Numbered from the stretch's first letter, positions 23,432-29,995 are shown. The stretch is DNA of 64,000 bases from an uncultured Chlamydiae bacterium (GCA_963754655.1 CAVWGN010000001.1:224001-288000); one strand, 5' to 3'. Program-made: numbers and translations. Notes: a model not told the origin generated them from the letters alone.

Positions 23432-24211
23432 TTACTGTTCTTCATTTAACGTTAAAGGAATTTGATAACCATGTTTATCGAGTAAATCTTTTAGTCTTTC
23501 AGAGATAAGAAGAATATCTTCTGTATCAAAATGTTTCAGATGCTGGAATGCTTTTCCTTTAGCTGGAAACTTATTGGCCGCTCTTTGCAAATCTTTTTCA
23601 GTAAATTCATATTTGCATGCTTCGAGAATCTGCGCTAAGTAGTAGGTGGGATTATCCATTAAGTCTTCATAACGGATAGTTAATACATTGGGTTCTTGAT
23701 CCCAATAGTCTTGAAATTTACGCCAAGAATATAAGTAATCCCCTATAGTCTCTTTAGGGACTTTATAGTTGCTATCGGATGGATGTGCATACACATAAAA
23801 AGATGAAATGCTGTCGATGGGATTGCGAATAATTCTAATGGCTCCTACAGAAGGTTGATGGTCAAATTGATTGGGCTTAAAACTTGGAAAGTGCGTTTTA
23901 ATGACGATACTCTCATGAGGTTGAGGATAACGGCAATTTCCTTGGTATCCACCATCCACGCTATATCCTCCCCAAGGAAAAGGAGTAGGCAAATGAGGTC
24001 GAAAGTCGCTATCCTGATAAACGGAGCTTGTTGCGATGTGAGACGCTTCTTCAATAAGGAAACGCACCCAATGATTACCTGAACGTGGATAAGTTGCTAA
24101 ATAGATTCTTTGATTCCACTCATTTGCTTGTATCTCATTTGCTTCTTCTACCCATGCAAATTGAACCATAAGCGTGAAAAATGTGAGAAAAATGTAAATT
24201 TGCTTTCTCAT
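23432..24211 (-). CDS. PAPS-dependent sulfotransferase with signal-peptide-like N-terminus
   Basis: 5'-PSB motif ATYPRSGNHW, IKTH, 3'-PB motif IRNPIDSISS, IRYEDL. Likely start ATG 24211 (MRKQIYIFL...) with aggag RBS. Confidence 0.88.
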   Translation of the reverse strand: MRKQIYIFLTFFTLMVQFAWVEEANEIQANEWNQRIYLATYPRSGNHWVRFLIEEASHIATSSVYQDSDFRPHLPTPFPWGGYSVDGGYQGNCRYPQPHESIVIKTHFPSFKPNQFDHQPSVGAIRIIRNPIDSISSFYVYAHPSDSNYKVPKETIGDYLYSWRKFQDYWDQEPNVLTIRYEDLMDNPTYYLAQILEACKYEFTEKDLQRAANKFPAKGKAFQHLKHFDTEDILLISERLKDLLDKHGYQIPLTLNEEQ

Positions 24212-24251
24212 TAATTTATCTTCTCCTTTCCATAGCATTTGAATTTGAGGG

Positions 24252-25604
24252 TTAATTGGATTTACTGGGAACATACAAATAGAAATAATAAGGTTCAGTG
24301 ATAATTTCTTCTGTTTTTAGCAGACCAGATTTGGCAATTTGCATTGCCCAATCTGTATCTTCACTATAAGATTGATTTGGAAAAAAGAATTGAGAACCGA
24401 TGGCACGTTTAATAGGGTTAAGATGATTAGGAGGCCGATAATAAATTCCATTTTTCTGAAAATAAGTTTGATACTGAATGGAATGGATGAAAATTTTGGG
24501 ATTCTCCTTATTAAAAGTAATAATACCTGTTAAACTCACGCAATCAGGTCGATATTTTAATTTCTCATGAATCATTTTAACATAGTGATCATGCACGTCG
24601 TCATCATCATCAATGAAATTAATGTATAAACCCTTGCTTTGTCTTAATAAGGCGTTACGTTTAGTGCCAATTGATTTTTCTCGATTATCTAAAAAAAAGA
24701 GGATTTCTACCTTATCATCTAGTCCCTCTTCTTGAATTTGCTTTTTTAATTTTTGGTAAAGTCGCTGAAATGATTGTTCTCTTTCTTGTAAAGTACAAAT
24801 TAAAATCGACCAATCTTTAGGCAATGCTTCTTCAAACACACGTTCATTCAAATCAAAATAACGTGCTCGTCTTTGCTCATAGATGGCTTGATCAACGTGG
24901 TAGAAAGATTCATTACGTGCCAGAAGAGCATCAAAAGATTCGCTTCTGTAGAGGGGATGATGATGATGAATAATGATTTGATTAATGACCGCTTCTTTAC
25001 CCAACATTCTAGAAACAACTGTTAGCTCATTGTCACACCACAGGGCATGATAAGCTGGATGATAAGCATAACCAAATCGCTCATAATACTTTTTCCCTAT
25101 TATCGGTAGAGTGTTGAGTATTTCCCCAATATGTCCATCATGAAAATTTAACACTCCATCAAAATCAGGAAAATTCGCTAACATTTGATCCGCAATTATC
25201 TTGTCATATCCCTGAGCGACGGGTTTCATATCATCACTTGTGACGAGTAAGATATCAAACCAGTTAACATATTTGTCAATATCTCGATTATATGCTTCTA
25301 CTTTTGTTGCATTGTGACTAAAGTTTACTGTTAAGTTAGGATAGCGAGCCAGACGTTCTTTGACCTCTATGCAGTTCATAGTGGAATCGTCTACATCACA
25401 CGTAATAAGAAACCAGTACGGAATTTCACCTGATAATTTTTGATAATACAAATCCAAATGGTCAAAAAACTGCGTGGGTCTAGAACGCGTCGGGATTTTA
25501 ATGAGTAATTTTGGAGGTAAAGTATTTTCTATCTCCTGAGCATAAGCAAACTGAGATAAGATAGAGAAAAATAAAAGCAAACCTACCATCTTATTTAAGT
25601 ACAT
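24252..25604 (-). CDS. Two-domain GT-A glycosyltransferase with signal-peptide-like N-terminus
   Basis: Domain 1: LLIKIPTRSRP...TSDDM...WCDNE. Domain 2: WSILICTLQER...SIGTKRNALL...FIDDDD...EDTDW. N-terminus MYLNKMVGLLLFFSILSQFAYA. Confidence 0.8.
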   Translation of the reverse strand: MYLNKMVGLLLFFSILSQFAYAQEIENTLPPKLLIKIPTRSRPTQFFDHLDLYYQKLSGEIPYWFLITCDVDDSTMNCIEVKERLARYPNLTVNFSHNATKVEAYNRDIDKYVNWFDILLVTSDDMKPVAQGYDKIIADQMLANFPDFDGVLNFHDGHIGEILNTLPIIGKKYYERFGYAYHPAYHALWCDNELTVVSRMLGKEAVINQIIIHHHHPLYRSESFDALLARNESFYHVDQAIYEQRRARYFDLNERVFEEALPKDWSILICTLQEREQSFQRLYQKLKKQIQEEGLDDKVEILFFLDNREKSIGTKRNALLRQSKGLYINFIDDDDDVHDHYVKMIHEKLKYRPDCVSLTGIITFNKENPKIFIHSIQYQTYFQKNGIYYRPPNHLNPIKRAIGSQFFFPNQSYSEDTDWAMQIAKSGLLKTEEIITEPYYFYLYVPSKSN

Positions 25605-27969: not shown

Positions 27970-28270
27970 GAGAAAAGAAAAGCTGATCTTCAGAATTTTT
28001 TAAAGCAAGCACGACGAAGTTTGAACACACCTTTTACAACTCGGTATAAAAATTAGAAAGATTCTGCTGAATCTATTTGAATGCTCTAGCCTTATCGCTT
28101 CCATTTTTACGATCTAAAAAATGTTGATCTTGGAATTTATTAGGTAAGCATAAAATTTTTTATCTGATAAATGCTAAAAATTTAAATTATGAAATATAAG
28201 TGGCATCACTATATCAGTTGACAAAATTCTGAATTTATTAAATATAAAAATTAACAAGGAATGACAAACG

Positions 28271-29995
28271 ATGAAAAATAAAATTCAGCAATATTTCAGC
28301 CAAAAATGGCTATGCATTGCATTCTTATTCGTGTTAATGCCTCTTTTAGCCTCTAACATCAATCCACCTTCTAATCCTCTTTCATTAACTCTTACTCAGC
28401 GGCAAATATGTGATTTAGAACTTATCATGAATGGAGGATTTTCACCGTTAGAGACTTTTATGAATCGTGAAGATTATGAAAAAGTTGTACATGATATGCA
28501 TTTATCAAACGGGACTGTGTGGCCAATTCCGATTGTTTTAGATGTTTCAGAAAAACTTTTGGAAAAAATAAAATTAGGTTCAGAAGTGGCTCTAAAAGAT
28601 CAAGAAGGATGGCTTTTGGCTTTTTTGACTATTGGTGAAATTTGGAAGCCGCAGAAGTTAATAGAAGCTGAAAAGGTTTATGGAACGACAAATCAAGAGC
28701 ATCCAGGTGTGAATTATCTTCTCAATGAAATGGGAGATTATTATCTCTCAGGAAAGTTAACAAAAGTTCAAACGCCTTATCATTTTGACTTTATTTCATT
28801 AAGAAAAACTCCTGCAGAGCTCAAAGCATACTTTAAGGAAAATGGATTTGAGAAAGTGATTGCTTTTCAAACTCGAAATCCTATGCATCGCGCGCATGTA
28901 GAATTGACGACACGTGCGGCTCATCGCACTGGCGCTCATCTTCTGATTCATCCAGTTGTCGGGATGACGAAACCCGGTGATGTGGACTATTTTACGCGAG
29001 TCAAATGCTATCGAAAGATTCTTGATTATTTTCCAAAAGGTTCAACTACCTTAAGTTTGTTGCCACTTGCAATGAGAATGGCTGGTCCAAGAGAAGCTTT
29101 ATGGCATGCCATTATTCGCAAAAATTATGGATGCACTCATTTTATTGTGGGTAGAGATCATGCAGGGCCAGGTAAAGATAGTCTAGGCCGTGATTTTTAT
29201 GATCCTTATGCAGCTCAGGAACTCGTTCAAGCATATGCTAAAGAAATTGGAATTGAAATTGTTCCTTTTCAAGAAGTCGTTTACATAAAAGAAGATGATA
29301 ATTACCAACCAGTAGATGAAATTCCGCCTGGAAAAACTGTGCTCTCCATTTCTGGTACAAAACTTAGAAAACTGTTATATGAAGGCAGCGAGATTCCGGC
29401 ATGGTTTTCTTTTCCCGAAGTGATTGCAGAGCTTCAAAAAGTCTATCCCCCCAGATCAAAGCAAGGTTTTACTCTTTTCTTTACAGGTTTACCAGGGTCG
29501 GGAAAATCTACCCTTGCTAAAGCTGTTGCCTTCCAGTTAATGGAACTACAAGATAGATCGGTGACTATTTTAGATGGAGATGTGATTCGGACGCATTTGT
29601 CTTCAGAGCTAGGATATTCTAAAGAGCATCGATCTATCAATGGACGGAGAGTGGGATATGTTGCTAGTGAGATTACTAAAAATAAAGGAATTGCCATTTG
29701 TGCCATGGTTGCACCTTATGCAAGGGATAGAGAGTATAATCGGAATCTTATTAGTGCTTGTGGGAATTTTATTGAGGTCTATGTTTCTACGCCTTTGCAG
29801 ATTTGCGAAGCTAGAGATACTAAGGGGCATTACTCTCTAGCTAGAAGTGGAAAGTTGCCTGAATTTACTGGAATTGATGATCCTTATGAAGAGCCTCAGC
29901 AGCCTGAAATTAAAATTGATACCAGCCGCTATTCTATTTCAGAAGCTGTTGAATTGATTCTCGACTATTTACGTCAAGTCAAGCACATTGAGTAA
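28271..29995 (+). CDS. sat/cysC: Bifunctional sulfate adenylyltransferase/adenylylsulfate kinase (PAPS synthesis) with N-terminal hydrophobic extension
   Basis: DLELIMNGGFSPL, AFQTRNPMHRAH, MRMAGPREALWHA, VGRDHAG; C-terminal FTGLPGSGKST, LDGD, FTGIDDPYE. Confidence 0.95.
   Translation: MKNKIQQYFSQKWLCIAFLFVLMPLLASNINPPSNPLSLTLTQRQICDLELIMNGGFSPLETFMNREDYEKVVHDMHLSNGTVWPIPIVLDVSEKLLEKIKLGSEVALKDQEGWLLAFLTIGEIWKPQKLIEAEKVYGTTNQEHPGVNYLLNEMGDYYLSGKLTKVQTPYHFDFISLRKTPAELKAYFKENGFEKVIAFQTRNPMHRAHVELTTRAAHRTGAHLLIHPVVGMTKPGDVDYFTRVKCYRKILDYFPKGSTTLSLLPLAMRMAGPREALWHAIIRKNYGCTHFIVGRDHAGPGKDSLGRDFYDPYAAQELVQAYAKEIGIEIVPFQEVVYIKEDDNYQPVDEIPPGKTVLSISGTKLRKLLYEGSEIPAWFSFPEVIAELQKVYPPRSKQGFTLFFTGLPGSGKSTLAKAVAFQLMELQDRSVTILDGDVIRTHLSSELGYSKEHRSINGRRVGYVASEITKNKGIAICAMVAPYARDREYNRNLISACGNFIEVYVSTPLQICEARDTKGHYSLARSGKLPEFTGIDDPYEEPQQPEIKIDTSRYSISEAVELILDYLRQVKHIE

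Follow-up and report, generated by a model that had tools for sequence, protein, structure and literature searches.

Bacterial nucleotide-sugar chemistry and the synthesis of 3'-phosphoadenosine 5'-phosphosulfate (PAPS) are, by textbook account, cytoplasmic, with only lipid-linked donors found beyond the inner membrane, and the bacterial modules that couple PAPS synthesis to a sulfotransferase, namely rhizobial NodPQ/NodH, Xanthomonas RaxPQ/RaxST and mycobacterial CysDNC/Stf0, are likewise cytoplasmic. Here we describe a locus of an uncultured Chlamydiae bacterium that resembles these modules in placing a dedicated sulfate-activation enzyme beside a PAPS-dependent sulfotransferase and glycan genes, but in which, unlike in those modules, PAPS synthase and sulfotransferase both bear predicted signal peptides. 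The locus lies in a stretch of 64,000 nucleotides (the window, G000:C1:224001-288000) of the source genome G000, which comprises 3.16 Mb in two contigs with a GC content of 0.39, and its five genes encode the sulfotransferase, a two-domain glycosyltransferase (GT), a small BclA_C-like protein, a GDP-L-fucose synthase (Fcl) and a bifunctional sulfate adenylyltransferase/adenosine 5'-phosphosulfate (APS) kinase (Sat/CysC). Judging from sequence, we think it probable that these genes belong to a Sec-exported nucleotide-sugar and PAPS pathway that operates beyond the cytoplasm, be it in the periplasm, in the inclusion or in the host cytosol.

Several described systems share parts of this arrangement. 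Chlamydia trachomatis is reported to make glycogen in the inclusion lumen from host UDP-glucose (PMC4829429, eLife 2016). That system thus appears to resemble ours in placing chlamydial Leloir-type enzymes outside the cytoplasm on a host-derived nucleotide sugar, export being a prediction in our case; it differs in that its enzymes reportedly leave by type III signals, that its product is glycogen and that it involves no nucleotide-sugar interconversion, PAPS synthesis or sulfotransfer, whereas the signals predicted here are of the Sec type and the supply enzymes are tagged too. Sat/CysC matches the Aquifex aeolicus/Rhodothermus marinus-type enzyme (NF004040/PRK05537) over its full length, with a Rhodothermus marinus cluster 63% identical, but where the canonical protein begins MP.TTLIEPHGG..., ours has a predicted signal peptide instead. 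In the eukaryotic Golgi, GT10, GT17 and GT92 transferases and Sulfotransfer_1/2-type enzymes carry N-terminal hydrophobic signals and some short-chain dehydrogenase/reductase (SDR) nucleotide-sugar enzymes are luminal, while transporters bring in PAPS and most nucleotide sugars after their synthesis in the cytosol; the chlamydial genome holds the same transferase families with N-terminal hydrophobic signals, destined by prediction for a non-cytosolic space, but unlike in the Golgi the synthesising enzymes are themselves export-tagged. The Bacillus exosporium proteins BclA and ExsF, finally, are glycosylated inside the mother cell. They are echoed here by collagen-like proteins with GXT repeats and by a BclA_C/ExsF-like protein (matched below cut-off) beside deoxyhexose and methyltransferase genes, with the difference that candidate acceptors and enzymes both have signal peptides.

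The organism is an environmental chlamydia: its genome encodes characteristic families (three Pom porins, PF17251, as well as CT021 and UPF0242), and the nearest named homologs of its Sat/CysC and Fcl come from Parachlamydia sp., Candidatus Protochlamydia phocaeensis and Parachlamydiales. For comparison, the search covered 40 relatives, drawn from 17 of the order's families, relatives being labelled G001-G039; P-numbers denote homolog clusters or records from protein searches. The five open reading frames (ORFs) are neighbours between window positions 23432 and 29995, where the original prediction had placed them, and are laid out with their leaders as follows.

23432..24211, minus strand: PAPS-dependent sulfotransferase, 259 amino acids, counted from Met22 of the long ORF
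24152..24211, minus strand: predicted sulfotransferase leader, MRKQIYIFLTFFTLMVQFAW; hydrophobic core (h-region) of 16 residues, N-flank charge +2, C-flank charge -4
24252..25604, minus strand: two-domain GT, 450 amino acids; N-terminal half ~28-256 (phage-type GT), C-terminal half ~258-450 (GT2)
25539..25604, minus strand: predicted GT leader, MYLNKMVGLLLFFSILSQFAYA; GGAG 5 nt upstream
26015..26614, minus strand: small beta-rich protein, BclA_C/ExsF/C1q-like (a lead only), predicted to be exported, 199 amino acids
26561..26614, minus strand: predicted leader of the BclA_C-like protein, MRNLFLAIFLFSTIGLRA, read from a GTG start
26959..27969, plus strand: GDP-L-fucose synthase (Fcl), 336 amino acids
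26959..27021, plus strand: predicted Fcl leader, MKSFYIYLILTVLCFKALIFA; GGAGG 10 nt upstream
28271..29995, plus strand: bifunctional sulfate adenylyltransferase/APS kinase (PAPS synthase, Sat/CysC), 574 amino acids
28271..28354, plus strand: predicted Sat/CysC leader, MKNKIQQYFSQKWLCIAFLFVLMPLLAS, replacing the canonical N-terminal 34 residues

All five members of the cluster as originally proposed are present and match their families, the BclA_C and Fcl scores falling below their cut-offs. Sat/CysC, which is single-copy in the genome, matches NF004040 at 859.5 bits (cut-off 669), with residues 38-570 on profile positions 35-567 of 572, and its translation shows intact catalytic motifs for the sulfurylase (QTRNPMHRAH and VGRDHAG, with HxxH and GRDHAG) as well as for the APS kinase (GLPGSGKST, the P-loop). 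Profile positions 1-34 are unmatched, so that the canonical cytosolic N-terminus is absent and a hydrophobic leader stands in its place. The sulfotransferase scores 46 bits against PF00685 (cut-off 22) and matches SULT1A1, StaL and TEG12 among PDB proteins by phmmer (E from 4e-6); the PAPS-binding and catalytic motifs of Sulfotransfer_1, namely the 5'-phosphosulfate-binding (5'-PSB) loop, catalytic His and 3'-phosphate-binding (3'-PB) element, are legible in its translation as YPRSGNHW, KTHFP and RNPIDSISS. A gene for a UmuD-type S24 peptidase (window 30000-30515, opposite strand) directly abuts the end of Sat/CysC.

Fcl, the sole copy found in the genome, reaches 488.3 bits against NF047922, below the cut-off of 500, with residues 28-333 on profile positions 3-307 of 308; we still read it as Fcl despite that score, and among named homologs GDP-L-fucose synthases come closest (65-69% identity). 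The SDR features of such an enzyme, a glycine-rich NADPH loop and a Ser-Tyr-Lys triad, are legible in the translation (GHRGLVGS, SSCIYP and YALAK). The GT matches PF00535 at 25.5 bits (cut-off 23.3) over residues 306-386 only, a domain matched by 48 of 51 aligned family members, and its FIDDDDD (the DXD motif) is legible. Within one GT2 domain, the family profile matches GalT1 (5hea), heparosan synthase B and chondroitin synthase (E 2e-7 to 7e-5), which by profile comparison shows GT2 membership and not a glycosaminoglycan synthase. The N-terminal half, originally proposed as one of two GT-A domains, has no Pfam match, and hhalign found no significant similarity between the two halves (probability 3.4%, P 0.013); the nearest ESM Atlas clusters to it (score 0.99) are phage glycosyltransferases of ~220 amino acids, and tblastn aligns it at 24-26% identity with annotated GTs of 11 Streptomyces phages (E ~1e-6). 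The two-domain family is large, with 4293 representatives at E<=0.001, many of them leaderless or inside multidomain proteins of up to 1867 amino acids. The BclA_C-like protein scores 22.1 bits against PF18573, below the cut-off of 38, and in the ESM Atlas it falls nearest to clusters of ExsF, BclA_C and C1q (0.89-0.91); it has one homolog only among 5.8 billion proteins (P0392, 69% identity), which keeps the leader, and an AlphaFold 2 model from the resulting 2-sequence alignment had a mean pLDDT of 30.5 and was unusable.

The start codons bear directly on whether these leaders belong to the proteins. The original prediction held that a ribosome-binding site precedes a long, leader-encoding start in every enzyme, and this holds for GT, Fcl and Sat, where Shine-Dalgarno (SD) sites lie 5-10 nt before the long starts (AAGGAA at 9 nt for Sat), while the other two starts had to be moved. 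Because AGGAG lies 11 nt upstream, the sulfotransferase most likely begins at Met22 of its long ORF (window 24211), which eliminates an overlap with the GT, since the long ORF extends to 24274 and overlaps the GT stop; likewise, because AAGGAGG lies 5 nt upstream, the BclA_C-like gene most likely begins at the GTG at window 26614, and the leader given above therefore follows from that start. The internal methionines that could have served as starts of cytosolic forms, in MPLDAK of Fcl and MPLLAS of Sat, have no SD site upstream. That of Fcl is replaced by Leu or Ile in G002 and in most homologs and so cannot be a conserved start, and Sat homologs mostly lack both a Met and an SD site between leader and conserved core. 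For the Fcl of Candidatus Protochlamydia phocaeensis there are two records, one of 334 amino acids with the leader (P0133) and one of 309 amino acids from the internal Met (P0134), both on a contig of length 188804, which look like two calls of one gene; automatic start-codon trimming can thus hide leaders in public annotation.

In form, the leaders resemble cleavable signal peptides. Among 110 Sat leaders the h-region has a median of 16 residues (interquartile range 14-18), with flank charges of +2.4 on the N-terminal and -0.15 on the C-terminal side, and the N-flank is the more positive in 100 of them; the corresponding values for 62 Fcl leaders are 14 residues, +1.26 and -0.58, with the N-flank more positive in 52. 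We compared 35 leader-bearing proteins of the source genome (34 enzymes and the BclA_C-like protein) with 32 periplasmic or outer-membrane controls chosen by family (Pom, ZnuA, SBP, OmpH, BamA, SurA, HtrA, SodC, OEP and others) and with 15 N-terminal anchors (HlyD family, PBP, MlaD, TamB, LpxK and others) from the same genome. The h-region medians were 14, 14.5 and 18 residues, the C-flank charges -1.03, -0.72 and +1.20, and a -3/-1 site, by a permissive rule used without a shuffle control, was present in 33/35, 28/32 and 9/15, respectively. The leaders of the enzymes thus match those of exported controls and differ from anchors. The same permissive rule finds a -3/-1 site in four of the five cluster leaders and none in that of the sulfotransferase. 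By eye, a conserved lipobox is absent from Fcl and Sat leaders, which sets aside a lipoprotein reading, and a twin-arginine motif is absent from the leaders, which sets aside export by the Tat route.

These leaders are also conserved. Sat/CysC is present in nine relatives and carries a leader in eight, the exception being G030, and among its 120 closest clusters (59-100% identity) 110 have one; of the ten that do not, P0107 and P0119, the latter including Rhodothermus marinus proteins, have the canonical N-terminus, P0076, P0089, P0103 and P0117 are truncated gene calls, and the rest lack the sequence motif that served as reference point. For Fcl, a leader is found in G002 (76% identity) and in G034, from another family (59%), and in none of G039, G036, G027, G030 and G031; of 120 closest clusters, 62 have a leader, 56 have the Rossmann strand within 17 residues of the start and two are unclear. 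The leaderless set includes Geobacter- and Geobacillus-type proteins and short calls from the internal Met, and because the former start 6 residues before the Rossmann strand, the Fcl leader is a plain addition to the leaderless form. Every one of 12 sulfotransferase genes (our own and 11 in G001, G002, G003, G013, G017, G020 and G022) has a leader, single stop codons flagged at four of these matches being taken to lie at their borders, with reading frames open over the whole genes. Six of seven GT genes of relatives have one as well, four of the genes being stand-alone N-terminal halves and the leaderless one, in G037, being split. Over the 110 Sat and 62 Fcl clusters, leader sequence drifts while hydrophobic character stays. 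The suggestion that the leaders might prove not to be conserved among orthologs is thus not borne out for Sat/CysC, Fcl, sulfotransferase and GT. In G020, which is 99% complete, there is a leader-bearing sulfotransferase and Sat/CysC was not found with this query; its PAPS may come from the host.

Leader status is moreover shared within genomes. GDP-mannose 4,6-dehydratase (Gmd) has a leader in 10 of 16 copies examined (two each in G000 and G021, one each in G012, G002, G013, G025, G034 and G029) and none in G027, G036, G030, G031, G039 and G016, one further G029 copy lying outside this count. In all 13 genomes that hold at least two of Sat, Gmd, Fcl, GT and sulfotransferase, the enzymes agree: all have leaders in G000, G001, G002, G003, G012, G013, G021 and G034, and none has in G030, G027, G036, G031 and G039, an agreement among related and hence not independent genomes, though G034 represents another family. 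The gene fcl adjoins gmd in G002 and G034, and every neighbour in the Sat-sulfotransferase clusters of G001 and G003 is leader-bearing (GT4, DUF6492, a Sulfotransfer_2 protein and unknowns).

The five genes do not stand alone. We applied a strict leader rule (an uncharged 10-residue window with a mean Kyte-Doolittle value of at least 2.2 within the first 28 residues, and a positive n-region) to 2244 genes of the source genome from a simple ORF caller. It flags 296 (13.2%), of which 215 (9.6% of all genes) have no further hydrophobic span and count as soluble; all five cluster genes pass, and nowhere else in the genome do so many flagged genes follow one another, runs of at least five arising in 1.55% of 2000 label shuffles. 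A census of 270 leader-bearing candidates of at least 150 amino acids, scanned against Pfam and then inspected by eye, recovered expected envelope proteins and also placed the cluster in a set of about 34 leader-bearing enzymes of cytosolic type. To the cluster and a second island, described below, the census adds a phosphoglucomutase/phosphomannomutase, two UDP-sugar pyrophosphorylase family proteins, GalE, nucleoside diphosphate kinase (NDK), a GT10 fucosyltransferase-family protein, GT17, four GT92, a second GT4, a second GT2, six methyltransferases, two Ppx/GppA proteins, a cytidine deaminase and others. One member lies in the window, 14 kb from the cluster:

43781..45223, minus strand: UDP-sugar pyrophosphorylase family protein, 480 amino acids, PF01704 at 122 bits on residues 78-418; predicted leader MRLKLFSKLFLFLLCCLMCPTFLSS

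Since the window holds no gmd, it had been proposed that the precursor must come from elsewhere or from the host; gmd is not missing, as the genome has two copies outside the window (C1:492336-494677; TIGR01472 at 509 and 581 bits), both leader-bearing. They belong to a second island outside the window (C1:489633-510862) in which nearly every gene is leader-bearing: GT4, the two Gmd, Methyltransf_11 and FkbM methyltransferases, RmlD- and RmlB-like proteins, two unknowns, AcsA (NF001208, 1014 bits) and an unknown protein of 168 amino acids. Some tagged enzymes have untagged counterparts: the leader-bearing GalE (TIGR01179, 400 bits) has a leaderless paralog 60% identical to it (C1:1052275-1053318 and 2782363-2783346), and two NDK genes lie in tandem (C1:2886515-2888275), one with a leader and a linker of ~70 amino acids and the other leaderless, at 62% identity. 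A GDP-mannose pyrophosphorylase (ManC) was not found with PF00483 in G000, the matches being RmlA, GlgC and two weak ones only, which fits the use of host GDP-mannose. Three collagen-repeat proteins with signal peptides carry GXT triplets (C1:449880-450680, C1:1522546-1525779 and C1:2109525-2110571; L081, L118 and L136), of the kind O-glycosylated in Bacillus BclA; these and the BclA_C-like protein are, by inference only, candidate acceptors.

Of the exported glycan-sulfation pathway first proposed, the leaders stand, their reality, conservation and three-part, signal-peptide form being supported by sequence comparison, while export itself stays a prediction, and none of the present results supports the suggested product, a glycosaminoglycan or fucoidan mimic, or any one site of action. 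From the predicted export we infer site, substrates and acceptor as follows. The five cluster proteins would each be made with a cleavable Sec-type signal peptide, as would phosphohexose mutase, the two UDP-sugar pyrophosphorylases, the two Gmd, GalE, the RmlB- and RmlD-like proteins, NDK, the transferases of families GT2, GT4, GT10, GT17 and GT92 and the methyltransferases, so that nucleotide sugars and PAPS would arise and be consumed beyond the bacterial cytoplasm. This could take place in the periplasm, at the cell surface or, upon further secretion, in the inclusion lumen or host cytosol, with host-derived ATP, GDP-mannose, NADPH and sulfate feeding the pathway. Such a pathway is plausible for chlamydiae, since they import host ATP, other nucleotides, NAD and S-adenosylmethionine (SAM), all of which must cross the periplasm. 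We entertain, more tentatively, a specific version of this pathway: a Golgi-like glycosylation and sulfation factory outside the cytoplasm, with a Sec-exported Leloir supply chain, that decorates exported collagen-like fibres or the envelope. Sugar phosphates would there be turned into nucleotide sugars and interconverted by Gmd, Fcl and GalE, NDK and PAPS synthase would contribute their products, eukaryote-type GT10, GT17 and GT92 transferases, sulfotransferases and methyltransferases would use them, and the host would supply ATP, GDP-mannose and sulfate.

Several observations weigh against an exported pathway. Fcl needs NADPH, Gmd bound NADP+ and methyltransferases SAM, all of which the enzymes would have to obtain outside the cytoplasm; as a twin-arginine motif is absent, multimeric cofactor-binding enzymes would moreover have to fold after Sec export. 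The leader calls rest on simple heuristics whose false positives include DnaX, IF-2, G6PD, DHQ synthase and FAD/Rossmann N-termini. A leader-bearing 3'-phosphoadenosine 5'-phosphate phosphatase was not found in G000 with PF00459, which matched one leaderless SuhB-like gene only. The only inorganic pyrophosphatase found (PPase, C1:654715-655479) and the only AcsA found are both leader-bearing, so that the cytoplasm would lack both if they were fully exported, and H+-PPase and family II PPase were not found in G000; the PPase leader is restricted to the genus (present in G000 and G001 and in none of 13 other genomes examined) and is followed by a conserved internal Met that could give a cytosolic form. 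The five-gene arrangement is not retained beyond the closest relatives, its genes lying on different contigs in G002 and G034. Finally, Sat, Gmd and Fcl are all leaderless in G030, and a cytoplasmic version therefore exists within the order. In a tree of 119 Sat/CysC proteins rooted on the Rhodothermus-type pair, G030 falls near the base with weak support (0.72, and 0.46 for G034), a placement that fits one leader gain with a loss and a position of G030 outside the clade alike, the two being indistinguishable on this tree.

We rate other explanations of the leaders lower. The proteins might be Sec-exported and type II-secreted (or vesicle-borne) effectors whose sole targets are glycans or proteins of the host, reached in its cytosol, to the exclusion of bacterial structures, a proposal that we regard as unlikely, even if it would find all the needed cofactors in that compartment and could draw on two secretins encoded in the genome. 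The lack of an identified ManC agrees with it, as does G020, where host PAPS may serve the tagged sulfotransferase. There is also a precedent in an amoeba pathogen, whose signal-peptide-bearing effectors the authors read as secreted into the host cytoplasm (PMC4378268). With host PAPS and GDP-fucose at hand, however, effectors would have little need to bring an exported PAPS synthase, Gmd and Fcl, and the GXT-repeat proteins offer candidate bacterial acceptors with signal peptides. Such effectors are a sub-case of the exported pathway that we favour, and the present results do not separate them from a periplasmic site.

Somewhat less likely again, in our estimation, is that the leaders are uncleaved inner-membrane anchors that hold catalytic domains in the cytoplasm, so that an ordinary envelope polysaccharide would be made by enzymes lined up on the membrane. 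Such an arrangement would make the cofactor problem disappear, and the genome does encode Wza-type polysaccharide export proteins; our rule also picks up LpxK, a known anchor with a cytoplasmic domain, some leaders are long (21 residues in GT4a and Ppx1, 20 in GT10), and that of GT92a has a positive C-flank and no -3/-1 site. Yet the charge bias is opposite to that of anchors, with a positive N-flank and a neutral or acidic C-flank in the 100 Sat and 52 Fcl leaders counted above, the enzyme set as a whole resembles the signal-peptide controls and not the anchor controls, and in Fcl the predicted cleavage site lies a median of 11 residues ahead of the point where the Rossmann motif begins. That the leaders are untranslated, with starts downstream and the hydrophobic codons a chance upstream extension of cytoplasmic enzymes, as the NCBI annotation of one Protochlamydia Fcl (P0134) and the genus-specific PPase leader with its conserved internal Met might suggest, is highly improbable given the hydrophobicity kept across diverged Sat and Fcl clusters, the lack of the internal Met in G002 and most Fcl homologs, the scarcity of Met codons and SD sites between leader and core in Sat homologs and the SD sites before the long starts.

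The exported pathway that we favour suggests that an amoeba-associated chlamydia assembles coats of sulfated sugar beyond its own cytoplasm, with energy that the host probably supplies. The conservation of signal peptides on PAPS synthase, Gmd, Fcl, GalE, NDK and Leloir GTs across a chlamydial clade breaks, on paper, the textbook rule that this chemistry is cytoplasmic, and the predicted exported set fits a chlamydial lifestyle of host-nucleotide import. Full-text literature searches, whose coverage did not extend to subscription journals, did not turn up any account of chlamydial Sat/CysC, Fcl or Gmd with signal peptides or of an exported sulfation pathway. If correct, our proposal would extend the one known precedent, inclusion glycogen in C. 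trachomatis, to complex sulfated and fucosylated glycans. Its more tentative, Golgi-like version would make this the first bacterium in which PAPS is synthesised, and glycosylation fed by nucleotide sugars takes place, beyond the inner membrane. Old reports describe chlamydia-dependent synthesis of heparan-sulfate-like material, and these genes, if they act as in that version, would provide a genetic basis for testing them.

Three further features of the window deserve mention. An RHS-repeat protein of 1908 amino acids with a leader is followed by three paralogous proteins of 180-209 amino acids with near-identical leaders (window 10860-18690), a layout resembling that of a toxin accompanied by immunity or orphan cassettes. 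Two adjacent ORFs at window 32916-34129 match the Ntox50 toxin domain, the second in its C-terminal piece only, and are probably polymorphic-toxin remnants. An RPE65 carotenoid-oxygenase family gene, likely frameshifted, is split into two ORFs (window 37585-39213) that cover profile positions 5-139 and 152-468; its neighbours are a PadR regulator and a Mutator-family transposase (39887-41089).

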